From an uncultured Syntrophales bacterium (GTDB lineage Bacteria > Desulfobacterota > Syntrophia > Syntrophales > JACQWR01), in contig CAZTLA010000001.1 in the NCBI GenBank assembly GCA_964614365.1, forward strand, positions 1-60,871: 60,871 nt of DNA, given 5' to 3'. The position numbers and the translations under genes were made by a program. The notes below the pieces were generated by a model, which worked only from the letters and a program-made list of their open reading frames with translations, was not told the DNA's origin and searched no databases. Below are positions 16,486-59,777 of this stretch, piece after piece (position 1 is the first letter of the stretch; each line of letters begins with the position of its first letter).

Positions 16486-16487
16486 CC

Positions 16488-18582: not shown

Positions 18583-18595
18583 GGGGAATAATATT

Positions 18596-19789: not shown

Positions 19790-19830
19790 GCGGGGTATTC
19801 TGTGGAGACGCTTTTTATGGAGGGCTGAAT

Positions 19831-20757: not shown

Positions 20758-20791
20758 AATCGTTTTTTAAAGAAGGAGACATGTAATTCAG

Positions 20792-22330: not shown

Positions 22331-22352
22331 TTATCCCGTTTATCGGGGTTAG
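22331..22352 (+). repeat. 22-nt conserved box TTATCCCGTTTATCGGGGTTAG (copy B), 23 nt upstream of the acyl-CoA dehydrogenase start
   Basis: An identical 22-mer occurs at 29817-29838, and in inverted orientation at 31192-31213. It contains a CCCG-N5-CGGG mini-palindrome. Confidence 0.8.
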
Positions 22353-22375
22353 CATACAAAGAGGAGATATCGGCG

Positions 22376-23539: not shown

Positions 23540-24753
23540 GCGATAGCCGGCAAAGCGTCTTTCCGCTTGAGGGGATCAGGGTGCTGGATCTTACCAGGCT
23601 CATTCCCGGCGCCTTTTGTACGGCTATTCTCGGAGATGCCGGAGCCGAGATCATTAAAGTGGAGGATACGGAGACAGGCGATTACGAGCGCGAGATACAC
23701 CCTTTTATTGGATCAATGGCCTCCCGCTTTCTTATCTTAAATCGTAATAAAAAGAGCATTTCTTTGAATTTGAAAAAAAAAGCGGGGAAGCAGATCTTTC
23801 TGAAATTGGCGCAGTCAGCCGACGTTATCGTGGAAGGATTTCGCCCTGGGGCAATGAAAAAACTGGGGCTGGATTATGAATCGCTCCGGGAAATCAATCA
23901 GAGGCTTGTCTATTGCTCCATATCCAGTTTTGGTCAGGATGGGCCATACAGAGATGTGGTGGCCCATGATATTAATATCTTGGGCCTGGCCGGTTTTTTT
24001 CATGTCACGGGAGTCAAGGGAGGCGCGCCGGTTATTCCCGGCATCCAGATCGCAGATTCCGTGGCCGGGATGAACGCGGCGCTGGCAATCCTTTTTGCCA
24101 TTATGGCCAGGGAAAAGACCGGAAAGGGGCAATTGTTAGACATCTCCATGTTTGATGGGGTTATCTCGTGGATGTTCGATGCGGCAAGATCCGCATTTGC
24201 CGGAGAGAGTATCCCCGAAAAAGGGAATGGCAGGTTATACGGAGGCCTTCCCAATTACAATCTTTACGAGACGAAGGACGGCAAGCATGTTGCTGTTGGC
24301 TCATTGGAGACGAAGTTCAAGAACGCATTGCTGAAGAAACTCGGAAGGGATGATCTCATCGAAGAAGAAGGAGGGAGAACTACCCCGGACATCAGGGAAT
24401 CAGACGTGGAGTTGCATGCTATTTTCCGTCAGGCTTTTTTGACCAAGACGAGAAATGAATGGATGGAAGAGCTGGGCGAATTGAATATTTGCGTAAGTCC
24501 GGTAAACACCATGGAAGAGGCAATCTCCCACCCTCAGGCAGCTTATCGTAAGATGGTGATGGGTGTAGACCATCCATCTGCCGGAAGAATAAAACAGATC
24601 GGGTCCCCGTTGAAAATGTCAACTATTTCATTTGATGTAAGTCGGCTGCCGGCGCCAAGACTCGGAGAGCATACCCGAGAGATGCTGGGCTCTTTAGGAT
24701 ATGACGGGGGTGAGATTGACGAATTGGCAAGAGAGGATATTATCCGGGTATAA
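23536..24753 (+). CDS. Family III CoA-transferase (CaiB/BaiF/Frc type)
   Basis: Contains GIRVLDLTRLIPGAFCTAILGDAGAEIIKVE, VIVEGFRPGAMKKLGLDYE and NYNLYETKDG. Confidence 0.88.
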   Translation: MSDSRQSVFPLEGIRVLDLTRLIPGAFCTAILGDAGAEIIKVEDTETGDYEREIHPFIGSMASRFLILNRNKKSISLNLKKKAGKQIFLKLAQSADVIVEGFRPGAMKKLGLDYESLREINQRLVYCSISSFGQDGPYRDVVAHDINILGLAGFFHVTGVKGGAPVIPGIQIADSVAGMNAALAILFAIMAREKTGKGQLLDISMFDGVISWMFDAARSAFAGESIPEKGNGRLYGGLPNYNLYETKDGKHVAVGSLETKFKNALLKKLGRDDLIEEEGGRTTPDIRESDVELHAIFRQAFLTKTRNEWMEELGELNICVSPVNTMEEAISHPQAAYRKMVMGVDHPSAGRIKQIGSPLKMSTISFDVSRLPAPRLGEHTREMLGSLGYDGGEIDELAREDIIRV

Positions 24754-24771
24754 CGGCAGAGGGTGCGTACA

Positions 24772-25650
24772 ATGATGAAAATAACGAAAGATTTGGAAGT
24801 GAAAATTATTGGTGTTGGCAAGGTGGGCGGCAGCATCGTTCAGGCCTTTGCCCAATCAGGATTCAAAATCCAGGGAATGGATATCGATCAAGGAAATATC
24901 GACAAGGGCTTTAAAAGTATTGAACAGAATCTGGAGAGATTGATTGCCAAGGGGAAAATACAGGCCGAGGAAAAGGATGTAGTGCTTTCCCGGATTGACC
25001 TGACAACAGATTTTGACGGGCTGAGGAAGGCCGATATAGTGATAGAAGCGGTCTTTGAAAATATGGACGTTAAGAAGGAGACTTTTCGAAAGATTGATAA
25101 AATGGTGGGGTCTCAAGATGCTCTTCTTTTGACGAACACATCCTCTCTCTCTGTATCAGAGATAGCCTCTGTAACCAGCCGGCCGGAAAAGGTGGCCGGG
25201 ATGCACTTTTTTAACCCTGTGCCAGTGATGAAGCTTGTGGAAGTGGTCCGGGGAGCCTTGTCTTCAGACGAGACAGTCGAACAGGTAAAAGCCCTCGCGA
25301 TATTGATGAATAAAACCCCGATCGTTTCCGCCGACAGTCCGGGATTCATCGTAAACCGCATGTTGAACGCATTGACCGTAGAGGCCGCGCGTATTGTGGA
25401 GGAAGGCGTCGGTACGGTGGAAGATGTGGATACAGGGGCCAAGCTGGGCTTGGGGCATCCCATGGGACCGTTTGCGCTTTTCGACTACCTCAGTGCCATA
25501 CATTTACTTCAACACGTTACCGATTATATGGCTGTGGAGTTAGGGGAAAGATTCCGTTTGCCTGTCTGGGTGAAGAACCTGGTGCGGGCCGGCAAGGTGG
25601 GCCGAGCCGCCGGAAGAGGATTCTACGACTATAGGGAGAAAGGGAAATAA
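24772..25650 (+). CDS. 3-hydroxyacyl-CoA dehydrogenase, NAD-binding
   Basis: Rossmann IGVGKVGGSI, then ...EAVFENMDVKKE, TNTSSLS, HFFNPVP and PGFIVNR. Start alternatives are GTG 24763, ATG 24772 and ATG 24775. Confidence 0.85.
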   Translation: MMKITKDLEVKIIGVGKVGGSIVQAFAQSGFKIQGMDIDQGNIDKGFKSIEQNLERLIAKGKIQAEEKDVVLSRIDLTTDFDGLRKADIVIEAVFENMDVKKETFRKIDKMVGSQDALLLTNTSSLSVSEIASVTSRPEKVAGMHFFNPVPVMKLVEVVRGALSSDETVEQVKALAILMNKTPIVSADSPGFIVNRMLNALTVEAARIVEEGVGTVEDVDTGAKLGLGHPMGPFALFDYLSAIHLLQHVTDYMAVELGERFRLPVWVKNLVRAGKVGRAAGRGFYDYREKGK

Positions 25651-25653
25651 GAA

Positions 25654-26436
25654 TTGCGAGAAAGCGAAATCATTTTCACGAAAGAAAAAGGAATTGCCAC
25701 GATTGTCTTTAACCGGCTCGATGTTCACAATGCTTTGAATAACGCCATGGTCAAAGGACTCGCCAACGCTCTGGATGATATTGAGAATGATGCGGGGATC
25801 AGAGCCCTTATTCTTACCGGCGCCGGTGAGAAAGCATTTGTCTCCGGATCAGACATCAGGGAACTCAGCGAGAGGACCTCTCTTACGGGTATTGAAAATT
25901 CGCTGAAAAGGCAGGAGTTGCTCAATCGAATTGAGGGGCTGCCAATACCTTCCATAGCGGCGATTAACGGTTATGCCTTTGGAGTGGGCTGCGAAATCGC
26001 TTTGGCCTGTACGGTCAGGATTGCCTCAGAGAACGCAAGATTAGGGCAATTAGAGATCAATCTCGGAATCATCCCGGGTGCAGGCGGCACCCAGAGACTT
26101 CCTCGGCTGATTGGCAAGGCCGGCGCGGCGGAGCTTATTCTGACGGGTAAAATCATTCAGGCTGAGGAGGCCTGCCGGATGGGGCTTGTCAACAAAGTGG
26201 TCCCCCATGAAAAGTTGAGGGAGGAATGCCTTCAGTGGGCCGGGACTTTCTCTGAAAAAAGCCCCATCGCCATGAAATATGCGCTTCGGGCAATCAACCA
26301 AGGTCTTGAGGTTGATTTAGCATCAGGATTGAAGATTGAGAGCCTGTGCCTGGGAGCATGTCTTGGTTCGGAAGACAGTAAGGAAGGGCTGAATGCCTTT
26401 TTAGAAAAAAGAAAACCAAAATTTAAAGGTTTATAA
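25654..26436 (+). CDS. Enoyl-CoA hydratase (crotonase family)
   Basis: Contains FNRLDVHNAL, FVSGSDIRE, INGYAFGVGCEIALAC and a C-terminal EGLNAFLEKRKPKF. The start is TTG. Confidence 0.88.
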   Translation: MRESEIIFTKEKGIATIVFNRLDVHNALNNAMVKGLANALDDIENDAGIRALILTGAGEKAFVSGSDIRELSERTSLTGIENSLKRQELLNRIEGLPIPSIAAINGYAFGVGCEIALACTVRIASENARLGQLEINLGIIPGAGGTQRLPRLIGKAGAAELILTGKIIQAEEACRMGLVNKVVPHEKLREECLQWAGTFSEKSPIAMKYALRAINQGLEVDLASGLKIESLCLGACLGSEDSKEGLNAFLEKRKPKFKGL

Positions 26437-26468
26437 TCTATTATATAACTCAGCATGAGGAGGGCGAA

Positions 26469-27335
26469 ATGGCAATTAATAAGGTTTTGGTCGTTGGCTT
26501 AGGACTGATGGGAAGGGGAATTCTTCAGGTTTGCGCCCAAGCGGGATTCGAATCATACGGCTACGATGTTTCTGAAGATGCCGTGAAAAATGCCACGGGT
26601 TATATCGGAAAAAGCCTGGAGAAAAGAGTCAAAAAAGGAACCCTGAGCGAAGAAGAGAAGGCCAAGATCTTGGCGAATATTAAGACCGTTTCGGATCTAA
26701 AGGATGCCACGGACGTGGATCTGGCCATAGAGGCGGTTTTTGAGGATCTCAAAGTAAAACAGGATCTGTTCAGGAAGTTGGATGAGGTCTTGCAGCCCAA
26801 CGCAATTTTGGCGTCAAATACCTCCGGGTTGCCGGCAACGCCACTGGCTTCCGTTACGAAGAGGCCGGACAAGTTCATGATTATCCACTTTCATCAGCCG
26901 CCTACGGTTATGAGACTTATAGAATTAGTAAAGGCGATCCAGACCAGCGATGAGACCGCTGCCGCTGCGATGGAATTCTGCAAGGCAATTGACAAAGATC
27001 CGATTCAAATCAATGTTGACTGCCCTGGATTCTTGACGAACAGAACCATGATCCCGTTGTTAAATGAAGTGATTTATTGTCTCTATGAGGGGGTATCTAC
27101 CAAAGAAGATATTGATCTGGCCTACAAATCAGGTTTTAATTGGCCTATGGGCCCGGTCACCTTGTGTGATTTCATCGGGCTGGATACTCTTCTTCATATC
27201 ATGGAGGACTTGCACAAACGGCGCGGGGGGGACAAATATATACCCTGTCCGCTTCTGAGCAATATGGTAGCTGCCGGGTATTTGGGTCACAAATCCGGCA
27301 AGGGGTTTTACGATTACTCCAAACTTAAAGGTTAA
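26469..27335 (+). CDS. 3-hydroxybutyryl-CoA dehydrogenase-like
   Basis: Contains VVGLGLMGRGI, EAVFEDLKVKQ, SNTSGL, HFHQPP, PGFLTNR and a C-terminal GHKSGKGFYDY. Confidence 0.88.
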   Translation: MAINKVLVVGLGLMGRGILQVCAQAGFESYGYDVSEDAVKNATGYIGKSLEKRVKKGTLSEEEKAKILANIKTVSDLKDATDVDLAIEAVFEDLKVKQDLFRKLDEVLQPNAILASNTSGLPATPLASVTKRPDKFMIIHFHQPPTVMRLIELVKAIQTSDETAAAAMEFCKAIDKDPIQINVDCPGFLTNRTMIPLLNEVIYCLYEGVSTKEDIDLAYKSGFNWPMGPVTLCDFIGLDTLLHIMEDLHKRRGGDKYIPCPLLSNMVAAGYLGHKSGKGFYDYSKLKG

Positions 27336-27351
27336 GCAAAGGAGTATGGTC

Positions 27352-28530
27352 ATGGAGGAGGTGGTCATCTGCAGTGCGGTGAGGACACCCATCGGTAATT
27401 TTCTGGGACAGCTTTCCCGTTTCAGCGCCGTGGACTTGGGCGCCATGGTCATCAACGAAGCAATCAACAGGGCAGGCATTGCCAAGCAAGATATTGATGA
27501 GGTCATCATGGGAAATGTACTTCCCTGCGGCCTCGGTCAGAATCCCTGTCGACAGGCAATGATCAAAGCCGGTGACATAAGCTTTGATGTGGGAGCGCTA
27601 ACCATCAACAAGGTTTGTGGATCCGGTCTTAAGGCCGTGATGCTCCTTACCCAAGCCATTCAGACAGGGGATGCCGAGGCGGGCGTGGCCGGCGGCATGG
27701 AATCCATGAGCCAGGCGCCCTATTATCTCGACAGGGCGAGATCAGGCTATCGAATGGGTAACGGGAATATTGTTGATCATATGGTTCACGATGGGCTGTG
27801 GGATGTAGTAAACGACTGCCACATGGGCTATACGGCTGAACTGGTTTCTGAAAAATATGGAATTTCCAGGGAGGATATGGACAGATGGGCGTATGAGTCC
27901 AATACCAAGGCGCTGGACTCGATAAAGACCGGGAAATTCAAAGAGGAAATACTGCCTGTTTCAGTTCCTCAAAGAAAGGCAGATCCGATTCTGATAGATA
28001 AGGATGAAGGCCCCGGTATTCCTGATCTGGTGAAAATGGCCAAGCTCCAGCCGGCCTTCAAGAAAGACGGTGTAGTAACGGCTGGGAACGCTTCCAAGAT
28101 CAGTGACGGTGCATCGGCCCTGGTGGTCATGTCGGAGAAAAAGGCCGGGAAATTAGGGGCGCCGATTATCGCTAAGGTGATTGCTCAAGCCTCTGCCGGT
28201 TTAGGCTTAGAACAGGTGCTCATGTCGCCCATTAAGGCGATTCCTCAAGTCCTGAAAAAAGCAGCCCTGAAAATAGAGGATATTGACTTGTTCGAGATCA
28301 ATGAAGCATTCGCTGCTTCCACGGTGGGGGTTATCAGAGAGCTGGGAATAAATCCTTCAAACGTGAACGTCCACGGCGGAGCAGTTGCCTTGGGACATCC
28401 CATCGGGGCAAGCGGAGCCAGGGTCCTTACCACGCTGCTTTACGCCATGAAACAGCGAGATGCCAAAAGAGGTCTTGCCACACTCTGCCTGGGGGGCGGT
28501 GAGGCGGTAGCCCTGGTCGTGGAGATGTAA
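27352..28530 (+). CDS. Acetyl-CoA acetyltransferase (thiolase II-like)
   Basis: Contains VICSAVRTPIG, INKVCGSGLKAV, NVHGGAVALGHPIGASGAR and CLGGGEAVA. I preferred the ATG at 27352 because its SD (AAGGAG) spacing is better. ATG 27346 is the alternative. Confidence 0.9.
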   Translation: MEEVVICSAVRTPIGNFLGQLSRFSAVDLGAMVINEAINRAGIAKQDIDEVIMGNVLPCGLGQNPCRQAMIKAGDISFDVGALTINKVCGSGLKAVMLLTQAIQTGDAEAGVAGGMESMSQAPYYLDRARSGYRMGNGNIVDHMVHDGLWDVVNDCHMGYTAELVSEKYGISREDMDRWAYESNTKALDSIKTGKFKEEILPVSVPQRKADPILIDKDEGPGIPDLVKMAKLQPAFKKDGVVTAGNASKISDGASALVVMSEKKAGKLGAPIIAKVIAQASAGLGLEQVLMSPIKAIPQVLKKAALKIEDIDLFEINEAFAASTVGVIRELGINPSNVNVHGGAVALGHPIGASGARVLTTLLYAMKQRDAKRGLATLCLGGGEAVALVVEM

Positions 28531-28594: not shown

Positions 28595-29758
28595 ATGGTT
28601 AGTAAGAAGAAATCACTTGAAACCTTCGCAACGATCGAAAGGATCAATCAACAGCTCCCGGGTATCGACGAGATCAGGGAATGGAAAGCCCGAGGAGGGA
28701 AGGTGGTGGGGTGGTTGTGCGATTATGTTCCCGAGGAATTGATTCATGCGGCAGGGTTGCTGCCGGTCCGGGTGACCGGGCTTCCGAAAGAAATATCATT
28801 AGATGACGCCAACGCCTATCTTTACACCACAACCTGTTCCTTTGTCCGAACCGTTTTTCAACTCGCCTTTGAGAAGAAGTATGATTTTCTGGATGGGTTT
28901 GTGGTGGCCTCCAACTGCGATCACGCACGGAGATTATTTGACGTTTGGGACCGGTACATTCCCACACCGTATCGGTATATCCTCTCCGTGCCTCAAACAA
29001 AATTGCCCCAGGCGCAAAAATTTTATGAGCGAGAACTGGAGGATTTTAAAAAGAGCCTGGAAGCCCATTTTAAAGTCAGCATCCCCGAGGCCAAGATCGG
29101 GGAGTCGATCAAACTTTTTAATCAAACCCGCAGAGGTCTCCGCACATTGAACGAGCTGAGAAAACAGGATTCTCCCAAGATCATGGGGGCTGAGGTCTCC
29201 AAGATCATGAACGCCTGCGAAAAACTGCCTAAAGAGCAGTTTAATCCCCTGCTCGAATCGATTCTTCAGGAGTTGAAAAAGACCGACCGGGAGAACAAGA
29301 CCAACATCCGCCTGATGGTCTCCGGGAGTGTCCTCAATAATCCAAATTATATCGAGTTTATAGAAGATCAGGGGTGCAGTGTGGTCATCGACGATCTTTG
29401 CACCGGGGTCCGTTACTGGTGGGATGAGGTCCCGGAAGATAAACCGCCGATGGAGGCCTTGTCTCATCGTTATCTGACCCGGTTCCCCTGCGCCAGGATG
29501 ACCCCCGGGGAAGATCGCTTTAAACAGGTGGCGGCGCTGGCTAAAGAATACCGGGTGGATGGAGTTATTCAGGAGATGGTGCGCTACTGTACGCCTACCG
29601 CCTGGGAAAGACCGTGGCTTCGAAAGGGCATTGAAGATGAGAATATTCCGGTATTGCAGTTGGAAATAATATATGGAGCGGCCGGGACGGGGCAATTGAA
29701 GATCAGAATCCAGGCCTTCATCGAGATGCTGGGGATGCAGTCAGAAGAGTTTTTTTAG
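28595..29758 (+). CDS. Benzoyl-CoA reductase (class I) / 2-hydroxyacyl-CoA dehydratase family subunit, BzdN/BcrC-like
   Basis: 387 aa. Contains GGKVVGWLCDYVPEELIHAAGLLPVRV, FVVASNCDHARR and DDLCTGVRYW, as in BcrC/BadD/HgdB-type subunits. Confidence 0.8.
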   Translation: MVSKKKSLETFATIERINQQLPGIDEIREWKARGGKVVGWLCDYVPEELIHAAGLLPVRVTGLPKEISLDDANAYLYTTTCSFVRTVFQLAFEKKYDFLDGFVVASNCDHARRLFDVWDRYIPTPYRYILSVPQTKLPQAQKFYERELEDFKKSLEAHFKVSIPEAKIGESIKLFNQTRRGLRTLNELRKQDSPKIMGAEVSKIMNACEKLPKEQFNPLLESILQELKKTDRENKTNIRLMVSGSVLNNPNYIEFIEDQGCSVVIDDLCTGVRYWWDEVPEDKPPMEALSHRYLTRFPCARMTPGEDRFKQVAALAKEYRVDGVIQEMVRYCTPTAWERPWLRKGIEDENIPVLQLEIIYGAAGTGQLKIRIQAFIEMLGMQSEEFF

Positions 29759-29760
29759 TA

Positions 29761-29838
29761 AGTTAGAAATTATGGTTCTTTCGTGTTTCCGGCAAGAAAT
29801 AATTTCGTAAACTTACTTATCCCGTTTATCGGGGTTAG
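29761..29838 (+). repeat. ~78-nt intergenic repeat, copy A: imperfect AT-rich hairpin plus the 22-nt box
   Basis: AGTTAGAAATTAT...CCGGCAAGAAATAATTTCGTAAACTTACTTATCCCGTTTATCGGGGTTAG. By eye it is about 85% identical to the reverse complement of 31192-31267. The box ends 24 nt before the ATG at 29863. Confidence 0.8.
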
Positions 29839-29862
29839 TATAAGATTCCGGGGAGATAGGAC

Positions 29863-31185
29863 ATGAAACCGAAGATTAAGGATATCGAAATCAATCTCGA
29901 GGATTTCAATTCGATGATTGCCTTGTTGGAATCCATTCTTGCGCACCGGAGAAAAAAGCCGACGACCAAGAGCGCCGAACTGTTTTATGCGCATCAGATC
30001 AACTATTACCGGGAGATAAGGGACGCTAAAAAGAACGGGAAGATTTTCGTGCTCCATTCTGCCTTTACTCCCGTGGAAATCCTTTATGCCTTTGATGTTG
30101 TTCCGGCCCACGCCTCTTTCTTAGTGGGCGCCATTGCTCAACTCACCAAGAAGCAGGGGGAATACATGGATGCTTCATCCCGGTTTGGATATCCCTGGGA
30201 GGTATGCCAGGGGCATCGGCCCGTAGTTGGCGGAGCCCTTTTGAAGAAAGCCCCCAAGCCGGACCTCTGCATATCCACTCAGATAGGCTGCACGAATGCA
30301 GCCTCCAGTACCATGGGCCTTGCACGGGCCTACGATGTCCCGATTCATTATATGGACATGAGCTATGGAGGGAAAAGAGCGGTAGATTTTGCCTACTATA
30401 TCGAAAACTTAAGAGAACTGATCAAATTTCTGGAGGGATTCACGGGTAAGATATTTGATTGGGACAGATTGTGTGAGATCGTGGACATCGAGCGGCAGAT
30501 AGCAGAGGTCAACCTCGAGATTATGGAGTTAAGAAAAGCCGTCCCCTCTCCTGTTCGGCATCGCGGGTTTACTCAACAGTACAGTGTGGATATGTTCACG
30601 CCGGGGATTCCGGAGGCATTAAATTTCTTCAAGTGTGTTCGGGATGAGATCAAGGAAAATGTCGAGACCAAGAGGGGGCCGATCGATACCCCGGAACGTT
30701 ATCGAGTCCTTTCGATCTTGATGCCGCCGAATTTTGCCCATAAACTACTGGACTGGATGGAAGAGGAACACGGAGTTTTCTCCGTGGGAGAACCTCACAT
30801 GGCCTACTGGCCGCCCAATCTCAAACTCGACCCGAACCATCCCTTGGAAAGCCTGGCCAATAAGTACTATAACCGGCCAATGTTGGCGCAGTTGATCTGC
30901 CCGGCCATAGACTGCCTCATTCCGGATACCCTAGCGCTTGCCAGGGAGTACAAAGCCGATGGGGCCATCTTCTATGCCAACGTGACCTGTCATACAAGCC
31001 CGGTTCTGATCCGGTCGCTCAAGGATTCACTGCTCGAAACTGCGGGGATTCCCACGTTGGTCCTCGATATGGACGTGGCGGATCCCAACTATACCTCACA
31101 GGAAGAGATGCAAGAAAGAATTGAGACTTTCCTGGATATCATGGACACGTATAAAGAAAAAAGGAAAATCGAGGGAAGAATTTAA
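29863..31185 (+). CDS. Benzoyl-CoA reductase (class I) / 2-hydroxyacyl-CoA dehydratase family subunit, BzdO/BcrB-like
   Basis: 440 aa. Its length and position match the bzdNOPQ order. Contains FVLHSAFTPVEILYAFDVVP, ISTQIGCTNAAS and ANVTCHTSP. Confidence 0.75.
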   Translation: MKPKIKDIEINLEDFNSMIALLESILAHRRKKPTTKSAELFYAHQINYYREIRDAKKNGKIFVLHSAFTPVEILYAFDVVPAHASFLVGAIAQLTKKQGEYMDASSRFGYPWEVCQGHRPVVGGALLKKAPKPDLCISTQIGCTNAASSTMGLARAYDVPIHYMDMSYGGKRAVDFAYYIENLRELIKFLEGFTGKIFDWDRLCEIVDIERQIAEVNLEIMELRKAVPSPVRHRGFTQQYSVDMFTPGIPEALNFFKCVRDEIKENVETKRGPIDTPERYRVLSILMPPNFAHKLLDWMEEEHGVFSVGEPHMAYWPPNLKLDPNHPLESLANKYYNRPMLAQLICPAIDCLIPDTLALAREYKADGAIFYANVTCHTSPVLIRSLKDSLLETAGIPTLVLDMDVADPNYTSQEEMQERIETFLDIMDTYKEKRKIEGRI

Positions 31186-31191
31186 TATCCC

Positions 31192-31267
31192 CTAACCCCG
31201 ATAAACGGGATAAGTGCGTTAACGAAATTATTTTTTGCCGGAAAAGTGCAAAAAATAATTTCTCACT
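31192..31267 (-). repeat. ~76-nt intergenic repeat, copy C (inverted relative to copy A), with a perfect 15-bp AT-rich hairpin
   Basis: CTAACCCCGATAAACGGGATAA at 31192-31213 is the reverse complement of the 22-nt box. The stem arms are GAAATTATTTTTTGC (31224-31238) and GCAAAAAATAATTTC (31248-31262), with a 9-nt loop. Confidence 0.8.
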
Positions 31268-31289
31268 TACGAAAGAGGAAGGGAATGAG

Positions 31290-32075
31290 ATGGCTGTCGC
31301 AGGAATGGATGTCGGGCATCGCAGCATCAAAATGGTGATTTTGGAGGATGGGGAAATTCTCTCCCGGAAGATTATAACTACCGCCGGAGAAACGAACGCC
31401 CTGGCAAAACAGATTTTCGACCAGACAGCAGAGGAGATTGATCTGGATCCTTCCCGCCTCAAATTTATTACGACTACCGGCGGCATGGGGAAGAACGTCG
31501 CCTTCGCCAACCTTTATCGAACCGTGCCCTATTGCCTGGCGAAGGGGGTTTACGCCCTCTTCCCGAAGGCGAGGACGATCATCGATATGGGAGGGGAAAC
31601 CTGCAATGTGATCAAACTGAACGAGAGGGGAGAGATTGAAGACACCCAGAGTAACGATAAGTGTGCCGCCGGAACGGGGATCTTTTTTGAGGCCATGGCC
31701 AAGCTTCTCGGCACATCGCTGGATCACATGGGGAGACTGGCAACCCAGGGAGACATCCAGTTTGAGATCAGTTCGATGTGTGTCGTGTTTGCCGAACAGG
31801 AGGTGATCTCCCACTGTCATGAGAATCCGGATATTTCCGCAGAGGCCTTGGCGGCCGGAATCCACCTCTCCATTGCCGAACGCGTGGCAGGGCTTGCGAA
31901 ACGTTTGGGGATCACGGAAGAAATTGTCCTAACCGGCGGGGTTGCCAAAAACAGGGGTTTTGTCAAATTCCTCTCGCAGAGGATTCATGCTCTTCCGAAG
32001 GTCCCCGAAGACCCTCAAATCATAGCGGCTTACGGAGCTGCGTTGATCAGTCAAGAGCGGATAAAAACTCTATAA
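31290..32075 (+). CDS. BadF/BadG/BcrA/BcrD/HgdC-family ATPase (electron-activating subunit), copy 1
   Basis: 261 aa with an acetate/sugar-kinase fold. Contains GMDVGHRSIK, DMGGE, NDKCAAGTG and SSMCVVFAEQE (the two cluster-bridging Cys), and LTGGVAKN. Confidence 0.85.
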   Translation: MAVAGMDVGHRSIKMVILEDGEILSRKIITTAGETNALAKQIFDQTAEEIDLDPSRLKFITTTGGMGKNVAFANLYRTVPYCLAKGVYALFPKARTIIDMGGETCNVIKLNERGEIEDTQSNDKCAAGTGIFFEAMAKLLGTSLDHMGRLATQGDIQFEISSMCVVFAEQEVISHCHENPDISAEALAAGIHLSIAERVAGLAKRLGITEEIVLTGGVAKNRGFVKFLSQRIHALPKVPEDPQIIAAYGAALISQERIKTL

Positions 32076-32101
32076 TTCCAGAGGGACAAAAAGGGGCGGT
32101 T

Positions 32102-32890
32102 ATGTATTTTGCAGGAATTGACCTTGGCTCGAGGAAATCAAAGATTGCTCTATTTAAAGAGGATGAATTGATCAAGGAATATGTAGGTGAAACAGGACTC
32201 GGAGCGGCCAGAACGGCAGAGATGATTATGAGCCTCGCCCTTGCAGACACAGGCTTAAGGATCGAGGACTTCCAGTCCATTGTGGCCACGGGATATGGTC
32301 GGGTGGTCGTCCCTTTTGCTCATAGCCATGTGAGCGATATCCTTGCTCATGCCATGGGAGCCTTTTGGTATTTCCCTTCCGCTCGCACGGTTCTCGATCT
32401 CGGGGGACAGGATTGTAAAGCCATCAATGTAGATGAAAGGGGAAGGCTGACCGGATTCGTAATGAATGATAAATGCGCGTCGGGAAACGGCCGATTTTTA
32501 GAGACCATGGCCGATCACTTGGAAATCCCGATTGAAAAGACCGGAGATATTTCCCTCGAAGCACAGAAACCCATAATATTCAGCACGATCTGTGCGGTCT
32601 TTGCCAACTCCGAGGCCATGGCCATGGTCCGGAAGGGAATTCCCCTGGCGGATATCCTGGCCGGGATTCACCATATCATTGCCGTTCAGTGTGAAAAGAT
32701 GCTGGAAATGCTTTCGCTGGAAGAGGATCTGGTGATGTCGGGCGGGGTTTCAAAAAATATCGGCGTGGTAAATATGGTTGCCAAGAGGCTGGGGATAACA
32801 CCCAAGATCCCTGCCGACCCGCAGATGGTTGGGGCCGTGGGCGCTGCTGTCGTTGCCCGCAAGAAATATCATGCAGGAAAATGTATGTAA
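32102..32890 (+). CDS. BadF/BadG/BcrA/BcrD/HgdC-family ATPase, copy 2
   Basis: 262 aa. Contains GIDLGSRKSK, DLGGQD, NDKCASGNGRFLE, STICAVFANSE and MSGGVSKN. Confidence 0.85.
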   Translation: MYFAGIDLGSRKSKIALFKEDELIKEYVGETGLGAARTAEMIMSLALADTGLRIEDFQSIVATGYGRVVVPFAHSHVSDILAHAMGAFWYFPSARTVLDLGGQDCKAINVDERGRLTGFVMNDKCASGNGRFLETMADHLEIPIEKTGDISLEAQKPIIFSTICAVFANSEAMAMVRKGIPLADILAGIHHIIAVQCEKMLEMLSLEEDLVMSGGVSKNIGVVNMVAKRLGITPKIPADPQMVGAVGAAVVARKKYHAGKCM

Positions 32891-32950
32891 GGAGTGAGGG
32901 GGCGATCCTACGGAAATACCTCGAGTAAATTAGAGAAGGAGATAGCGGAT

Positions 32951-34210
32951 ATGGAAGGAAGAAAAAATCTGATCGAAAACTGCAAAGTTCTTGACTTCAG
33001 CACTGAATTGGGATTTCTCTGCGGGAAGATCCTGGGCGATTTGGGCGCGGACGTCATAAAGGTGGAACCTCCCGGAGGTGACCCCGCCCGAAAGATGGGA
33101 CCTTTTTATCAGGATATTCCCCACCCTGAGAAAAGCCTCTACTGGCTCGCCTACAACAATAATAAAAGAAGCATGACCCTGAATATTGAAACGGCAGACG
33201 GCCGTGAAATACTGAAGAAACTCCTCATGTCGACGGATATTATTATTGAATCATTTCCGCCGGGATATATGGAGCAACTTGGGTTGGGGTTTTCGGAACT
33301 CAGCCGGATGACAAAAGAAAAAATTATCATGACCTCCATCAGCCCTTTTGGCCAGGAAGGGCCCTATAAAAACTACAAAGCCACGGACCTCGGAATTATG
33401 GCCATGAGCGGCTGTATGTCTCTTTTAGGAGAGCCTGACCGTCCTCCCCTGCGCACCAGTATTCCCGTCTCCTATATGTGGACGGGTTCTTATGCGGCAC
33501 TGGGAACGCTGATGGCCTACTTCCACTGTCGAACGACGGGCAGGGGACAACATGTGGATGTTTCGGCCCAGGCAAGCGCAGCCTGGTCGGCGGATACGGC
33601 TCCTTTATACTGGGAAGCCGACGGCACGCTGACCAAACGGGTCGGCAACGCCGTTCCCGGCCGTAGTATTCACGGTGCTGCCATGAAAGCAGCCTATCCC
33701 TGTAAGGATGGGTACATCTGCTGGCTCATCTACGGAGCAAGGGCCGGAGGGATAACCAATAAGGAGACCATGAAATGGATGGAAGAAAAGGGGATAACAT
33801 CTGACTGGATAAAAGCCCAGGATTGGGACAAATTCGATCCCGCTCTGGCAACGCAGGAAGATTTTAATCATATCATGGAGCCTGTTAGTCGTTTGCTTCA
33901 AGGGCTAACCAAAGCGGAATTTCTCGAAGAAGCGGTGAAGAGAAGGATCATGGGTTACCCCGTGTCCGATGCCAAGGATATCATAGAAAGCCCCCAACTC
34001 CGCGCCAGAGAAGTATGGCAAAATATCGAACATCCGGAGCTTTCCGCTGAGATTACCTATCCCGGACCTTGGGCAAAATTTTCCGAATCTTCCTGCGGAA
34101 TTTCTCGGCGAGCTCCTCTCATCGGCGAGCATAACGATGAAATTTACACCCAGGGACTGGGGATATCCGCGGAGGAATTAACGGTACTAAAACAGGCAGG
34201 AGTGATCTGA
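32951..34210 (+). CDS. Family III CoA-transferase, first of an adjacent pair
   Basis: Contains KVLDFSTELGFLCGKILGDLGADVIKVEPPGGD and IIIESFPPGYMEQLGLGF. I placed the start at ATG 32951 (MEGRKNL...). Confidence 0.85.
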   Translation: MEGRKNLIENCKVLDFSTELGFLCGKILGDLGADVIKVEPPGGDPARKMGPFYQDIPHPEKSLYWLAYNNNKRSMTLNIETADGREILKKLLMSTDIIIESFPPGYMEQLGLGFSELSRMTKEKIIMTSISPFGQEGPYKNYKATDLGIMAMSGCMSLLGEPDRPPLRTSIPVSYMWTGSYAALGTLMAYFHCRTTGRGQHVDVSAQASAAWSADTAPLYWEADGTLTKRVGNAVPGRSIHGAAMKAAYPCKDGYICWLIYGARAGGITNKETMKWMEEKGITSDWIKAQDWDKFDPALATQEDFNHIMEPVSRLLQGLTKAEFLEEAVKRRIMGYPVSDAKDIIESPQLRAREVWQNIEHPELSAEITYPGPWAKFSESSCGISRRAPLIGEHNDEIYTQGLGISAEELTVLKQAGVI

Positions 34211-34232: not shown

Positions 34233-35447
34233 ATGGGAAAAGGAATATTTGAAGGCGTAAAAATTCTTGAGTTCGGACAGATTGTCGCCGGCCCCCTTAT
34301 TTCGACCTACATGGCCGACTATGGAGCAGAGATCATTCACGTTGAATCTCACACACGGCCCGACCAGTACCGGTTTTATCCCCCCTTCAAAGATAATAAG
34401 CCAGGAATAAACCGGGGCTTCGATTTTGCCGTTTACAGCCATAATAAATATGGAATTACCCTCAACCTTCGCCATCCCAAAGGGATCGAAGTCGCCAAAC
34501 GGCTGGTAAAAGACTGGGCCAATGTGGTCCTTGAAAATTTCACGCCGGGTGTGATGAAAAGACAGGGATTGGGATATGATGAACTGAAAAAGATCAAACC
34601 CGACATCATTATGCTCAGCACCTGTAATCTTGGGCAAACAGGTCCCCACGCCAATCATCCCGGTATGGGCTCTCACCTCACTCATTTCAGCGGATTTACG
34701 AATCTCAGCGGATGGCCTGACCGTGACCCTTTAATTCTTTACGGGCCTTACATTGACTTCATCGGGGTCGTCTATGGTACGATTGCCCTGGTTTCAGCGC
34801 TTGAGTTCCGTCGCCGGACAGGGAAAGGACAGCTCCTGGACATCGCCCAACTCGAAGGGGGCATCCAATTCTTGGTCCCCACTTTGCTTGAATACGTCGT
34901 TAATGGACGGATTCAAAGAAGAAAAGGTAATCGTTGCGATTATGCGGCCCCTCATGGAGCGTTCCCGTGCCTTGGGGAGGACCGCTGGTGTGTCATCGCT
35001 GTTTTTACGGACGCAGAGTGGGAAAAGTTATGTCAGGTGATGGGCAATCCAGCCTGGACAAAAGATCCCAAATTCACCACGCTTCTCGAAAGAAAGAAAA
35101 ACGAAGATGAGCTGGAAAGATTGATCGGTGAGTGGACATCAAAACGGACTGCGGAAGAGGTCATGGACGCCATCCAAGCCGTGGGAGTGGAAGCTGTAGT
35201 TGTCAAGAATACGAAGGAAATGTATGAGGATGAACACCTGCATCGTTACTTCTGGGCCGAAATGGTCCATCCGGAGATAGGAAAGTACCACATCCAGTTG
35301 CCTCCCTACAGGCTCTCGGAGGCGCCTCCCCAGTTGCGGATGTCCAGTCCGCTCATCGGAGAACATAATGAATACGTTTACCGGGAGCTGGCGGGCTTTT
35401 CCAAGGATGAATACGAAGAACTGCAAAGAGATGGGGTCTTTGCATAG
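34233..35447 (+). CDS. Family III CoA-transferase, second of the pair
   Basis: Contains KILEFGQIVAGPLISTYMADYGAEIIHVE and VVLENFTPGVMKRQGLGYD. It starts 22 nt after the previous gene. Confidence 0.85.
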   Translation: MGKGIFEGVKILEFGQIVAGPLISTYMADYGAEIIHVESHTRPDQYRFYPPFKDNKPGINRGFDFAVYSHNKYGITLNLRHPKGIEVAKRLVKDWANVVLENFTPGVMKRQGLGYDELKKIKPDIIMLSTCNLGQTGPHANHPGMGSHLTHFSGFTNLSGWPDRDPLILYGPYIDFIGVVYGTIALVSALEFRRRTGKGQLLDIAQLEGGIQFLVPTLLEYVVNGRIQRRKGNRCDYAAPHGAFPCLGEDRWCVIAVFTDAEWEKLCQVMGNPAWTKDPKFTTLLERKKNEDELERLIGEWTSKRTAEEVMDAIQAVGVEAVVVKNTKEMYEDEHLHRYFWAEMVHPEIGKYHIQLPPYRLSEAPPQLRMSSPLIGEHNEYVYRELAGFSKDEYEELQRDGVFA

Positions 35448-35449
35448 AG

Positions 35450-37453
35450 ATGAGATACGCAGAGACAGGGTTTAATTTAGAAATTGATCTATCACGGGGA
35501 AACATTGAGAAGGTAGAAACGGACCCGGCATTAACCAAACTTCACCTTGGGGGCCTCGGCACTAACGCCAAGATATTATGGGACAGGGTCCCCCCTGAAG
35601 TCGAACCCTTTTCTCCCGATAATCTGCTCATATTCGGCACCGGTCTTTTATGTTGCACACCTGCTCCTTCTGCTAATCGTACTATTGTTACCACCATTTC
35701 TCCTCAGACTTTGCTTATGGCATATTCAATGATGGGGGGTTTTTTTGGACCGGAGTTGAAAAAAGCCGGTTACGACAAAATAGTAATTCGCGGTAAATCT
35801 CCCCGTCTCGTTTATTTGTGGATAAACAATGACAAAGTAGAAATACGTGATGCCTCTCATTTACAGGGTAAGGGCGGCAATGAAACGGCAGAACTTCTCC
35901 GACAGGAGTTGCGAGAGCCGGAAGCCCAGATCGCTGCTATCGGCCTGGCGGGTGAAAACAGGGTCTATACGGCTTCCATCGAGCAAGGCAAGTCTAGTGC
36001 CAGCCGACAAGGGGTGGGCGCCGTTATGGGAGACAAGGGATTAAAGGCAATCGTTGTTCGGGGAACAAAGGATATCCATATTGCCCGACCGGCCGAATTT
36101 ATGGAGATGTGCAACGAAGTCCTGAGCTTCATAAAACACCGATTGCAAAATCCAATTAAACTACCGGATGGCATGCCGATTATTTTAGGCTATCTGGGGA
36201 TACAAGAGATGGCGATAGATGATGAGGAGTGGCATACCACCAATTTCGCCTGGGGGAATGCCCGCCATCGCAGAAAAGATTTTTGGACGAAGGAAACCGA
36301 AGAGAGGTGGAAGGAGACACAGGAAAAAGTCGTCAAGCGGTTGATAGGTTGCTATAACTGCCCGATTAGCTGCGGCGGATCCGTTTCCTACCCCGGACTT
36401 CGGACCTACATGATGAAATGTTACTCGAAACTTACCTATACCATGGCGGCCATGTCGGACCTGGATTTTGGTTTTAGAATCGCTCAGCGCGCTACGGAGT
36501 ACGGCGTGGACGGATTCTCAACCCCGCAGGTTATTGCCTTTGCCCTTGAGCTGTATGAGGCCGGCATTTTGACCGACCAGGATATGCCGGGAATGCCATC
36601 CGATAACGAGGGAAGATTTTTCTGGTTGCTCGACCGGATTGTCCGGAGGGAAGGGATTGGAGATGTTTTAGCCAATGGCACCCATTGGGCGGCCCAACAG
36701 ATCGGTAAGGGCGCAGAAGCCTATGCTCATAATAACATCAAGAAACATGAACAGCTGCCCCTCAAGCTGGGAATGCTGAATCCCATTTATTTCCTGATGT
36801 ACTGTACCGGCGAGAAGATAAACATCACCCAGATCGAAGGCCAGTTCCCCCAGGCTCCCCATACCGGCAGAGAGGAAAGAGAGGAGTTTGTAAAGGATTG
36901 GATTCAGGTTCCCCATGAGAGATTTAAAGAATATTTTGTAAATTGGGAGCCCGGGACTTTCCCGCATAATCCGCCGCCGGAAGCGGTTTGCGACATCGTA
37001 GACTGGCAGGAGGCCATGCATTACCTTGATGACGCGACCGGGCTCTGCGCTGCGTCGTCATCATTTATCTTGAAGCCCCCCTATCATATACACAACTTAC
37101 CCCGTATAATCTCCTGCGCGACGGGGATGGATATTGATGAAGCCGGACTATGGGAAATAACCAGGAGGAATCGAACCTTAGTGAGAGCCATTAATGTAAG
37201 AAGGGGGCTCAGGAGAAAAGATGAGAAGCCTCCCGAGGACCATTGGAAGAAGAGATTCCCCGAGCTTGAAGCCAAGCTCTTGGACGAGTATTACAAATTC
37301 AAGGGGTGGAACAGTCAGGGTATTCCTACAAAGGAGTTTTTACACAGCTTAGGTCTGGATTACATCAGCGATGACCTCGTAAAGAGGGGGATATTGACAG
37401 ATGGTGAAGGGACTGCTTCTCATGATACTTCGGCCGGAAAAGAAGAGAAATAG
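35450..37453 (+). CDS. bamB: Tungsten-pterin AOR-family enzyme, BamB-type (active-site subunit of class II benzoyl-CoA reductase)
   Basis: 667 aa. Contains MRYAETGFNLEIDLSRGNIEKVETDP, GGLGTNAKILWDRVPPEVEPFSP, CYNCPISCGG, HNNIKKHEQLPLKLGMLNPIYFLMYCTGEKINITQIEGQFPQAP and YYKFKGWNSQGIPTKE. As far as I recall these closely match Geobacter BamB. They differ clearly from the generic AOR at 51685. Confidence 0.85.
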   Translation: MRYAETGFNLEIDLSRGNIEKVETDPALTKLHLGGLGTNAKILWDRVPPEVEPFSPDNLLIFGTGLLCCTPAPSANRTIVTTISPQTLLMAYSMMGGFFGPELKKAGYDKIVIRGKSPRLVYLWINNDKVEIRDASHLQGKGGNETAELLRQELREPEAQIAAIGLAGENRVYTASIEQGKSSASRQGVGAVMGDKGLKAIVVRGTKDIHIARPAEFMEMCNEVLSFIKHRLQNPIKLPDGMPIILGYLGIQEMAIDDEEWHTTNFAWGNARHRRKDFWTKETEERWKETQEKVVKRLIGCYNCPISCGGSVSYPGLRTYMMKCYSKLTYTMAAMSDLDFGFRIAQRATEYGVDGFSTPQVIAFALELYEAGILTDQDMPGMPSDNEGRFFWLLDRIVRREGIGDVLANGTHWAAQQIGKGAEAYAHNNIKKHEQLPLKLGMLNPIYFLMYCTGEKINITQIEGQFPQAPHTGREEREEFVKDWIQVPHERFKEYFVNWEPGTFPHNPPPEAVCDIVDWQEAMHYLDDATGLCAASSSFILKPPYHIHNLPRIISCATGMDIDEAGLWEITRRNRTLVRAINVRRGLRRKDEKPPEDHWKKRFPELEAKLLDEYYKFKGWNSQGIPTKEFLHSLGLDYISDDLVKRGILTDGEGTASHDTSAGKEEK

Positions 37454-37473: not shown

Positions 37474-38013
37474 ATGGGGGAGAAAAAAAAGAAATTAGTT
37501 AAAACGATAAAAATTGACGCTGATAAATGCAGCGGTTGCCGGGCCTGCGAGGTAATCTGCTCCGCCTTTCACGCTACGCCAAAATATAGCAGTAATAATT
37601 CAAGGCCTCGTATCCGGGTGATTCATGAACCGCTCAAAGACAAATATGTTCCTGTGTACGCAGGCGAGTATACGCCGGCCGAATGTATGGGCAGAAACAA
37701 ATACATCATGAACGGAAAGGAATACGGCGAGTGCGACTTCTGCAGGGCTTCCTGCCCGTCCAGAAATATTTTCAAAGAACCGGATTCCGGTCTCCCGCTG
37801 AAATGCGATATGTGTGAAGGCGAAGAAGAGCCCTTGTGCGTTACGTGGTGCTTAGTCGATGCCTTGACGTACGAAGAACGGGAAGAGGAAGAAGAAGAGG
37901 GAGAAGAGAAAAAAGAGGAGATGGAAACCGGATTGGAATCGATGGTAGACAAATATGGATTGCAGAAGGTAATGAATACCGTTGCTCGAATGTCGATGTC
38001 AAAGAAGGGCTAA
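37474..38013 (+). CDS. bamC: BamC-like [4Fe-4S] cluster protein
   Basis: 179 aa. Cys motifs are CSGCRACEVIC, CDFCRASCP and CDMCEGEEEPLCVTWC. A Glu-rich tract (EEREEEEEEGEEKKEE) follows. It starts 20 nt after the bamB-like gene. Confidence 0.75.
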   Translation: MGEKKKKLVKTIKIDADKCSGCRACEVICSAFHATPKYSSNNSRPRIRVIHEPLKDKYVPVYAGEYTPAECMGRNKYIMNGKEYGECDFCRASCPSRNIFKEPDSGLPLKCDMCEGEEEPLCVTWCLVDALTYEEREEEEEEGEEKKEEMETGLESMVDKYGLQKVMNTVARMSMSKKG

Positions 38014-38024
38014 AAAGGTTCAAG

Positions 38025-41059: not shown

Positions 41060-41139
41060 ATTCTTTCCCTCCGTATAGTAAAATACATCCCCGTTTAAGG
41101 TCGTTGACGAAATTACGGAAACCCACCGGGGCAAACCTG

Positions 41140-41898: not shown

Positions 41899-41943
41899 AA
41901 CGTTCTGCCTCCCTTTAAACAGAGTAGAAATGGAATCAGGCGA

Positions 41944-42732: not shown

Positions 42733-42768
42733 CGCTTCGTACTCCCTCTATCCATATCCCGTCAAATC

Positions 42769-43770: not shown

Positions 43771-43781
43771 GATCTCTCCTT

Positions 43782-58090: not shown

Positions 58091-58093
58091 TAT

Positions 58094-58639: not shown

Positions 58640-58672
58640 CGTCCCTCCCCGTTGGTTCTTCCATGTTTTTTC

Positions 58673-58699
58673 CCTCTCCGCTGCTTGTCGGCAGAGAGG
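58673..58699 (-). other. Intercistronic hairpin between dctP and dctQ
   Basis: The arms at 58674-58681 and 58691-58698 form an 8-bp stem with a 9-nt loop. The single imperfect pair is a G-U wobble only on the minus-strand RNA and a C-A mismatch on the plus strand. No U-tract follows. Confidence 0.3.
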
Positions 58700-58719
58700 A
58701 GGGAAAACTAGTAAGAATT

Positions 58720-59733: not shown

Positions 59734-59777
59734 AATTTCCCCCCTCCATTTAAAATTTCCTTACTCCCTCTCTATAT

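Follow-up and report, generated by a model that had tools for sequence, protein, structure and literature searches.

A Bzd-like N-O-P-Q gene module with an altered O subunit in an aromatic-catabolism locus of an uncultured Syntrophales bacterium

To our knowledge, no enzymes other than the class I aryl-CoA reductases use up ATP in order to drive electrons onto aromatic rings, and the characterised ones known to us are few (the benzoyl-, 3-methylbenzoyl-, 4-methylbenzoyl- and tetrahydronaphthoyl-CoA reductases). The question raised here is what enzyme is encoded by four consecutive genes, called N, O, P1 and Q1 below, at positions 28595-32890 of a 60,871-nucleotide (nt) stretch of DNA (the window) from an uncultured Syntrophales bacterium, contig CAZTLA010000001.1. 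Gene calls and Pfam matches give the order N-like subunit, O-like subunit, ATPase, ATPase, which matches bzdNOPQ, the genes of a class I benzoyl-CoA reductase (BCR), and downstream on the same strand lie BamBC-like genes of the class II benzoyl-CoA reductase with a second ATPase pair, P2 and Q2. In this layout, a first reading made from the letters alone (the sequence-only reading) was borne out, both for the two HGD-D subunits with their two distinct ATPases and for the genes that follow (Table 1).

The answer favoured here, with moderate confidence and from the analysis of the module and its relatives, is a four-subunit, ATP-hydrolysing, ferredoxin-dependent two-electron CoA-thioester reductase, which would have a Bzd-like build and belong to a separate, uncharacterised clade. 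Compared with its known relatives, it probably either takes another aromatic CoA ester as its substrate or relies on another chemistry. No report on this N-O-P-Q clade was returned by literature searches.

The N subunit and its cognate ATPases

Among chains in the PDB, N is most similar to BzdN (195 bits), followed by HadC (157), DCCP (134) and MbdN (126). Its top NCBIfam model is double_cubane (NF040772) at 243 (cut-off 350), ahead of BzdN at 191 (454) and HadC at 178 (700), and N passes no NCBIfam equivalog cut-off. Its identity to the canonical BzdN of strict anaerobes is 32%. Cys42, 81, 108, 269, 299 and 332 of N align with all six ligands of the [8Fe-9S] double-cubane cluster, and this set of six is common in the alignment to N, Aromatoleum BzdN, the canonical BzdN of strict anaerobes and DCCP, whereas HadC lacks two of the six (Pro and Ala stand at the positions of Cys42 and Cys269) and MbdN lacks three. 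In a neighbour-joining tree, one of those made for N and O without support values, the N clade groups with DCCP and BzdN and apart from HadC and MbdN. The PDB reference sequences were rebuilt from phmmer alignments, that of BzdO being partial. A double-cubane [8Fe-9S] cluster that transfers and stores electrons is predicted for N, storage being the role given to this cluster in the paper on the BzdNO structure (PMC11971306).

The complete six-cysteine pattern of N is the strongest sequence argument against an alternative that is held to be improbable, namely that the encoded enzyme works through ketyl radicals like the 2-hydroxyacyl-CoA dehydratases, or carries out another redox-neutral elimination, after priming by an ATP-driven electron and together with the adjacent CoA-transferases, as in hadAIBC and fldAIBC. 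The ATPases bear on this alternative too, since the activators of dehydratases are homodimers made from a single gene, and two different ATPase genes are found in every complete locus of the clade.

The N-O-P-Q set with both ATPases occurs in the same order in a Thermodesulfobacteriota metagenome-assembled genome (MAG; L001), three metagenome contigs (L002-4), a Deltaproteobacteria MAG (L005), two further metagenome contigs (L014 and L097) and Deltaproteobacteria RBG_16_47_11 (L096), in which P and Q were detected by tblastn; another contig, L013, ends inside the fourth gene. A contig profile scan with the O alignment and two peptide patterns returned only three loci. Across loci, orthologues are 75-92% identical for O, 58-88% for N, 60-91% for P1 and 63-92% for Q1, and wherever the contig of a relative is long enough, two distinct ATPase genes accompany N and O. 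The clade is found in strict anaerobes (Thermodesulfobacteriota and Syntrophales-like MAGs), for which a stoichiometric use of ATP is energetically costly. As a side observation, contig L008 (4357-15263) holds a distant N/O-like pair (O 37%) beside UbiD, Phenyl_P_gamma, NifH/ParA-like ATPases and two Oxidored_nitro genes, with no BcrAD ATPase near the pair.

All four ATPases of the window carry both cluster-cysteine motifs, N[DE][KR]C[AS][AS]G and Cxx[FY]A, as had been said of them from the sequence; the cysteines are Cys125 and Cys164 in three of them and Cys154 and Cys194 in the longer Q2. The idea that the two pairs are recent duplicates was ruled out, as all pairwise identities lie at 31-37%, and the choice between duplicates and distinct lineages that the sequence-only reading had posed falls to the latter. 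P1 is 91% identical to its partner in L001 and 60% to those in L002 and L014, and the corresponding figures for Q1 are 92% (L001), 68% (L002) and 63% (L014). Each of the two is thus orthologously kept, yet they are only 31% identical to each other, which means that they were distinct before the clade diversified. The nearest PDB chains of Q1 are MbdQ (194 bits) and HadI (191 bits), MbdQ also being the best PDB match for Q2, and P1 and Q1 both miss the NCBIfam cut-off of 380, with scores of 119 and 183. The divergence of P1 and Q1 reads as the heterodimer pattern of reductases that consume ATP stoichiometrically, and not as the single-gene activator of a dehydratase, which upholds the earlier argument that two different ATPases mark the class I type. 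With HadBC as the reference for dehydratases (HgdAB, FldBC and LcdAB were not included), no firm clustering with HgdAB/FldBC together with their ligands was found, an outcome named beforehand as one that would speak against an aryl-CoA reductase.

The O subunit and the reading of its chemistry

The O subunit is a more distant relative of everything characterised. Its PDB matches are HadB (62 bits), BzdO (58) and MbdO (34), its NCBIfam scores are 89 for HadB (cut-off 750) and 71 for BzdO (cut-off 449), and it is 22% identical to the canonical BzdO of strict anaerobes. Its AlphaFold2 (AF2) model, with a pLDDT of 93.8, superimposes with a TM-score of 0.80 on HadB, 0.78 on BzdO and 0.76 on MbdO. 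A HMMER scan of 1.84 billion representatives returned one other 50%-identity cluster for O (77% identical), after which identity falls to 41%, and 141 representatives in total with E <= 1e-30; the 90% cluster of O has 30 members, which come from Deltaproteobacteria and Thermodesulfobacteriota MAGs and from metagenomes.

Orthology with BzdNOPQ was ruled out, given the identities of only 32% for N and 22% for O to the true canonical clusters and the equivalog cut-offs that are missed. The claim of a class I BCR-type enzyme made in the sequence-only reading therefore stands as to its architecture and the six cysteines of N, but not as to orthology, nor as to the active site of O. In that site, C115, C143 and C376 are invariant across 48 homologues and align with Cys95, 128 and 380 of BzdO, the ligands of its aqua-[4Fe-4S] cluster (PMC11971306), although the alignment slips by one column at BzdO Cys128 owing to a 'CC' pair. 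The residues around the cluster differ. In BzdO, Glu65 and His131 are catalytic and Tyr97 and Gln274 bind the thioester, and Glu65 is described as conserved among class I BCRs (PMC11971306). In O of the window clade, the alignment places Ser85 at Glu65, Ala146/Asn145 at His131, Gly117 at Tyr97, Met287 at Gln274 and His377 at Glu381, whereas all five residues are retained in the canonical BzdO of strict anaerobes (L010 and L012). HadB and MbdO have the catalytic Glu too, as do most members of the wider uncharacterised family, so that its loss is specific to the window clade, in which the Glu of the HadB 'PEN' motif is Ser or Ala. With its three Cys, O is predicted to ligate a [4Fe-4S] cluster that leaves one iron site open, in an altered active site. 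With Glu, His131, Tyr97 and Gln274 lost, either the substrate or the chemistry of proton delivery or elimination must differ from that of BzdNO.

These substitutions bear directly on the possibility that the module is a BCR isoenzyme, a third sequence type of class I BCR beside the Thauera and Azoarcus types, which would reduce the hub metabolite benzoyl-CoA with other residues (e.g., His83, His118 or His377) in place of Glu65 and His131. Several His are indeed invariant in the clade, and the known BCR types share only 24-26% identity and yet catalyse the same reaction (PMC11971306). The module also stands beside very different peripheral sets, as expected for an enzyme of a central intermediate; these comprise a phthalate-type CoA-transferase with a Pcd-like UbiD, acetone/acetophenone-carboxylase-like genes, a PaaK-like ligase and a glycyl radical enzyme, and in L097 an Oah/BamA-like hydrolase adjoins it. 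We nevertheless consider the isoenzyme unlikely, because five residues that the canonical enzymes keep, among them a Glu shared by class I BCRs and by most of the clade's own wider family, have been lost together, and because a genuine BamB in the same operon would render a second benzoyl-CoA reductase redundant.

Nor does the O subunit speak clearly for a dehydratase. It is marginally nearer to HadB than to BzdO by PDB bits, NCBIfam score and TM-score alike, but it is without the 'PEN' glutamate, and the equivalog scores are far under the cut-offs for both HadB and HadC. The neighbouring genes are of aromatic pathways (Pcd-like UbiD, BamB and Oah-like hydrolase) and not of amino-acid fermentation, and a dehydratase of amino-acid fermentation as such was ruled out, since N has its six Cys, both ATPases are conserved and the gene context does not fit.

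For the ATP-dependent reductase that is preferred here, a course of electrons can be proposed. By analogy with BzdNOPQ and MbdONPQ, P1 and Q1 would form a heterodimer that shares one [4Fe-4S] cluster through Cys125 and Cys164 of each, would take electrons from reduced ferredoxin and would lower their potential by ATP hydrolysis. The electrons would then pass to the double-cubane [8Fe-9S] cluster of N and reach the three-Cys [4Fe-4S] cluster of O, at whose open iron site the acyl-CoA would bind. To judge from gene context, the substrate would be the CoA ester of an aromatic (di)carboxylate imported by TRAP/TTT transporters and activated by the adjacent two-subunit family III CoA-transferase, while in relatives CoA ligases would activate it, often alongside a phthaloyl-CoA-decarboxylase-like UbiD. 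The product, or benzoyl-CoA derived from it, would enter the BamB-dependent benzoyl-CoA pathway and proceed through the glutaryl-CoA lower pathway of the same string.

The variety of peripheral genes would fit either a hub metabolite (benzoyl-CoA or a simple analogue) or a substituted aryl-CoA that standard BCRs refuse, and the rebuilt active site together with the genuine BamB in the same operon tips the inference toward the latter. Tentatively, and with no great confidence, the Glu-less N-O-P1-Q1 enzyme may catalyse a new ATP-dependent reaction on a substituted aryl-CoA, such as the reductive removal of a hydroxyl or halogen or the reduction of a carboxylated benzoyl-CoA. The substituted aryl-CoA suggested by the sequence-only reading was therefore a reasonable guess, in view of the BzdO catalytic and thioester residues that O lacks.

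Several points weigh against the ATP-dependent reductase and have to be set beside what favours it. The term 'reductase' is drawn from the architecture and not from the active site of O, which is no closer to BzdO than to HadB, and that site does not reveal the chemistry, since the Glu by which reductases and dehydratases alike transfer protons is absent from O. The 2-hydroxyacyl-CoA dehydratases, too, have family III CoA-transferases at their side (HadA and FldA), so that the adjacent transferase genes fit a dehydratase as well. There is no Pcd-like UbiD in the window, which makes the link to phthalate-type genes indirect there, and because the neighbours vary by locus (glycyl radical enzyme, acetone-carboxylase-like and RdhA-like), no single substrate is implied. 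Finally, it is by operon context, and not by comparison of sequences, that the module appears set apart from tetrahydronaphthoyl-CoA reductase.

What gives the clade its interest is that it retains the full electron-activating machinery, the double cubane as well as both ATPases, around a remodelled active site from which a Glu conserved in the reductases and the dehydratases of the family has gone. Once its substrate is known, anaerobic aromatic degradation would gain a further reaction, possibly one of phthalate isomers or of halogenated or hydroxylated benzoates, and there would be a natural test of which residues a Birch-like mechanism needs.

Neighbouring genes and the orphan BzdPQ pair

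Table 1. Features of the window around the N-O-P-Q module (aa, amino acids).
Feature	Position	Strand	Remarks
Lower benzoyl-CoA pathway string	17231..28530	+	co-directional, upstream of N
N-like (gamma-type) subunit	28595..29758	+	387 aa; PF06050 HGD-D, E = 2.7e-91
O-like (beta-type) catalytic subunit	29863..31185	+	440 aa; PF06050 HGD-D, E = 4.7e-56
ATPase P1	31290..32075	+	261 aa; PF01869 BcrAD_BadFG
ATPase Q1	32102..32890	+	262 aa; PF01869 BcrAD_BadFG
Family III CoA-transferase subunit 1	32894..34210	+	438 aa; CoA_transf_3; begins 3 nt past Q1
Family III CoA-transferase subunit 2	34233..35447	+	404 aa; CoA_transf_3
BamB, tungsten catalytic subunit, class II benzoyl-CoA reductase	35450..37453	+	begins 2 nt past CoA-transferase 2
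BamC-like polyferredoxin	37474..38013	+	179 aa; directly after BamB; weak Fer4 matches
BzdP orthologue, orphan ATPase (P2)	38025..38798	+	257 aa; start corrected
BzdQ orthologue, orphan ATPase (Q2)	38835..39722	+	295 aa
AOR-type tungsten oxidoreductase	51685-53643	-	AFOR_N/AFOR_C; 74% to L097, 75% to L001 AFOR
Polyferredoxin	53674-54204	-	54% to L097 gene
RdhA-like protein	54265-55545	-	426 aa; 73% to L097 gene
TRAP transporter DctM, DctQ, two DctP binding proteins	56771..60797	-	domain matches

The class II reductase downstream is represented by both its tungsten subunit and its polyferredoxin. The former matches Geobacter metallireducens BamB (4z3w_A) over its full length with 1072 bits, and the BamC-like product scores 26.4 bits for Fer4_7 (cut-off 27), Fer4_6 and Fer4_2 being likewise under the Pfam cut-offs. 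Scans of open reading frames (ORFs) did not find the electron-bifurcating BamDEFGHI module in the 60.9-kb window, and it may lie elsewhere in the genome. The start of P2 was corrected, since the ORF listed at 37836-38798 overlaps BamC and the real ATG is the one in Table 1 (MITAGIDCG...), 11 nt past the BamC stop. As the gaps from P1 to Q2 are tight (2-36 nt), one transcript is likely through all of these genes. A scan of 27-40.3 kb for promoters and terminators returned nothing beyond the shuffled expectation. No other HGD-D gene was found among the scanned window ORFs of at least 150 aa, nor a further copy by tblastn of canonical BzdN and BzdO against the window.

P2 and Q2 are unlike P1 and Q1 in their affinities. 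Q2 passes the NCBIfam BzdQ equivalog (417 > 380), is 85-88% identical to BzdQ of canonical bzdNOPQ clusters and of a bam-linked Syntrophales contig, and is 82-91% identical to very many metagenomic proteins; P2 is 75-81% identical to BzdP of L010, L011 and L012. On the sequences, P1 and Q1 are the cognate partners that co-evolve with N and O, and P2 and Q2 are orthologues of canonical BzdPQ whose BzdNO partner is missing in the window. The observation of four ATPases for one HGD-D pair thus holds within the window, but the stoichiometric oddity that it seemed to imply does not, P2 and Q2 being an orphan BzdPQ.

Canonical bzdN-O-P-Q-ferredoxin(-BzdV) clusters of strict anaerobes are found in L010, L012, L021 and L028, and orthologues of Q2 on long-enough contigs stand either in such clusters or directly after bam genes without BzdNO. 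Three junctions between the two gene sets can be compared. In L011, a Syntrophales contig (8550-9957), BamE-F-G-H-I is followed by BzdP, BzdQ, a 96-aa ferredoxin and BzdV; in L016 (3793-4194), BamD-E-F is followed by a 13% BamH fragment, a 26-aa remnant of the BzdO C-terminus and BzdP-Q; and in the window (38013-38025), BzdP comes straight after BamC, with a step in GC content from 0.469 (BamC) to 0.606 (BzdP). The BamH fragment and BzdO remnant of L016 look like a deletion scar in an ancestral bam-bzd tandem, and P2 and Q2 look like what was left beside the bam genes once BzdNO had been lost from it. They may be functional remnants, partners of a BzdNO encoded elsewhere, or feeders of BamBC. 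That BzdPQ was kept by bam genes through three junctions while BzdNO was lost could reflect selection for a partnership with BamBC, but it is very doubtful that the orphan pair serves as an ATP-driven electron activator of the tungsten BamBC, which would join the energetics of class I to the catalysis of class II, and literature searches gave no report of BzdPQ-type ATPases working with BamBC. Orphan BzdPQ pairs beside bam genes do raise the question of whether systems of the two classes work together, or one takes the place of the other, and in what way. The view that both reductase classes in one cluster are unusual did not hold, as the adjacency recurs in related contigs, and both BCR classes were already reported in one genome of a strict anaerobe, strain NaphS2 (PMC6129605).

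The two CoA-transferase genes that follow Q1 have orthologues beside N-O-P-Q in L014 (67% identity for subunit 1 and 70% for subunit 2) and beside the surviving N gene of the truncated L015 (53% and 56%). In L014, the pair is preceded by a TRAP transporter and by a UbiD with 514 bits to phthaloyl-CoA decarboxylase (PDB 8oz5), and homologues of this UbiD are encoded close to the module in L001 (71%, over 131 aa) and L002 (49%); CoA ligases are found near it in L002 and L013. In the closest relatives (L096 and L097, and in part L001), genes for a polyferredoxin, an AOR-type tungsten enzyme, an RdhA-like protein and TRAP binding proteins come directly after N-O-P-Q, and L097 has the ring hydrolase of the Oah/BamA type mentioned above, which at 390 bits misses its cut-off of 464. 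As a side observation, L001 (1615-4988; relative 88% identical) has a glycyl radical enzyme (803 aa, PFL2/HypD-like, under all equivalog cut-offs) and an activase immediately upstream of N-O-P-Q.

The window holds counterparts of these genes on its minus strand. Its RdhA-like protein exceeds the NCBIfam RDH cut-off (191 > 160), has 137 bits to PceA and 123 to NpRdhA, and is 72-73% identical to orthologues that lie in the same string as N-O-P-Q in L096 and L097; it is probably cytoplasmic, as no clear twin-arginine signal is seen at the N-terminus by eye. The DctP proteins of the window are 62-75% identical to DctP beside N-O-P-Q in L014, L005 and L097, and its TctC at 45987-46994 is 78% identical to the TctC adjoining N-O-P-Q in L001. 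Six TctC-family binding-protein genes lie at 40037-51673 (minus strand) without adjacent TctA or TctB, in a Bug-like expansion, interleaved with genes for an SDR, an enoyl-CoA hydratase/isomerase, an ornithine-cyclodeaminase/mu-crystallin protein, a UbiD and Amidohydro_2. A complete phthalate pathway in the window was ruled out; the UbiD at 47988-49457 has only 57 bits to phthaloyl-CoA decarboxylase and is nearer to phenylphosphate-carboxylase beta and 7pda, and tblastn of the window found no other copy. To judge by all these neighbours, the module has its place in the breakdown of aromatic carboxylates that are taken up and then processed as CoA esters. The clade is consistently linked to aromatic-carboxylate uptake and CoA activation, to Pcd-like enzymes and to a tungsten AOR accompanied by an RdhA-like protein.

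Upstream of N, the co-directional string comprises TetR, enoyl-CoA hydratase, thiolase, amidohydrolase, GcdA-type carboxyltransferase and non-decarboxylating glutaryl-CoA dehydrogenase genes, then a CoA-transferase, two 3-hydroxyacyl-CoA dehydrogenases, a crotonase and a thiolase. The glutaryl-CoA dehydrogenase passes the Acd equivalog (Desulfococcus type, non-decarboxylating; 484 > 470), and by its gene content the string is a lower benzoyl-CoA pathway of the strict-anaerobe type. The thiolase ORF at 18521-19789 (plus strand) has a TTG start that overlaps the preceding hydratase gene by 62 nt and a Pfam match from residue 31, and its true start is probably ~90 nt downstream. Directly upstream of the TetR gene, at 14417-17090 (plus strand), lies a three-subunit 2-oxoacid:ferredoxin oxidoreductase (POR_N, TPP_enzyme_C and POR gamma), which may be what supplies reduced ferredoxin; POR genes likewise follow the canonical bzd cluster of L012.

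It is this string that recalls the thn operon, and with it the idea of a tetrahydronaphthoyl-CoA reductase (THNCR)-like enzyme, or another reductase of bicyclic or alicyclic aryl-CoA, encoded in a thn-like operon. The outline is similar to that in the published operon table (PMC12016498), with a regulator, enoyl-CoA hydratase, metal-dependent hydrolase, acyl-CoA dehydrogenase, family III CoA-transferase, thiolases and a Bzd-like four-gene reductase in both, and THNCR is described as a homologue of bzdNOPQ (PMC12016498). Yet ORF scans of the window found no genes for MaoC (ThnHI), lyase (ThnQS) or an OYE-type reductase, the acyl-CoA dehydrogenase is the glutaryl-CoA dehydrogenase equivalog, and where the module occurs in relatives, its neighbours are phthalate-type and TRAP genes and not thn genes. 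No NaphS2 or N47 protein is among the named top matches, a weak point since most matches are unnamed. A thn-like function is accordingly judged very improbable.

Two observations concern the DNA itself. An inverted repeat that resembles a REP/MITE-like hairpin element has 53-nt arms, 92% complementary, at 29786-29838 and 31192-31244, which bracket the O gene exactly within two 104-nt spacers, the N-O spacers of relatives being 11-47 nt; a 23-nt core of it recurs at 22330-22352, after the carboxyltransferase gene, with 0 matches expected by chance. The O gene with these arms may be an invertible segment. The GC content steps from 0.59-0.64 up to ~17.1 kb to 0.36-0.39 in the TetR gene, ~0.50 in the catabolic string and 0.57-0.61 in BzdP/BzdQ, which suggests mosaic assembly of the cluster, a chimeric contig being less likely.

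Comparison with known systems

The closest parallel in build is BzdNOPQ of the Azoarcus/Aromatoleum type (PDB 8s02; PMC11971306), which has the same N-O-P-Q order, six double-cubane Cys in an N subunit that is the best PDB match for N of the window, three Cys for an open-site [4Fe-4S] cluster in O, and two different BcrAD-type ATPases with two cluster Cys each. The differences are the low identities of N and O, the five residues replaced in O, and the Bzd equivalog cut-offs, which all four subunits miss. Moreover, no BzdM-type 96-aa ferredoxin or BzdV adjoins N-O-P1-Q1, and the closest relatives of the module have a polyferredoxin and an AOR-type tungsten enzyme next to it instead. The Thauera type, MbdONQP/BcrCBAD (PDB 9g87 and 9gai), is likewise a heterotetramer with two ATPase subunits, but MbdN holds three of the six Cys (a single [4Fe-4S] cluster), the matches of MbdN and MbdO are weaker than those of BzdN and BzdO, and the gene order differs.

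HadBC with its activator HadI and CoA-transferase HadA (PDB 3o3m) belongs to the same fold family, HadB being the top structural match to O, and shares the three-Cys cluster with an open iron site as well as adjacent family III CoA-transferase genes. It differs in that HadC fills four of the six Cys positions ([4Fe-5S] cluster type) and N of the window all six, in having one homodimeric activator and not two conserved distinct ATPases, in the 'PEN' Glu, and in its setting of amino-acid fermentation as opposed to aromatic-acid catabolism. DCCP with DCCP-R (PDB 6eno and 7yyl) has the same six-Cys double-cubane motif, and its model heads the list for N, although below the cut-off. It is, however, a homodimer of one HGD-D protein served by a homodimeric ATPase, whereas the window has two dissimilar HGD-D proteins and two ATPases, and O is without the Cys of the second sub-cluster.

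As to the surrounding genes, the anaerobic phthalate module (succinyl-CoA:phthalate CoA-transferase, Pcd and TRAP) has in common with the window a two-subunit family III CoA-transferase and TRAP/TTT transporters, and Pcd-like UbiD genes lie beside the reductase genes in L014, L001 and L002. The likeness of the transferases would be one of family and context, and the two modules differ in that no described phthalate cluster with a BCR-like reductase was found in this search and that the window is without a Pcd-like UbiD. The 'Magic' benzene cluster of ORM2 (PMC13101534) was considered as a parallel and set aside, as it has two type III CoA-transferases but no BCR-like genes. On these comparisons, the module is filed as a putative variant within the BCR-I/HAD radical-enzyme family, outside BzdNOPQ, the HadBC-type dehydratases and DCCP.

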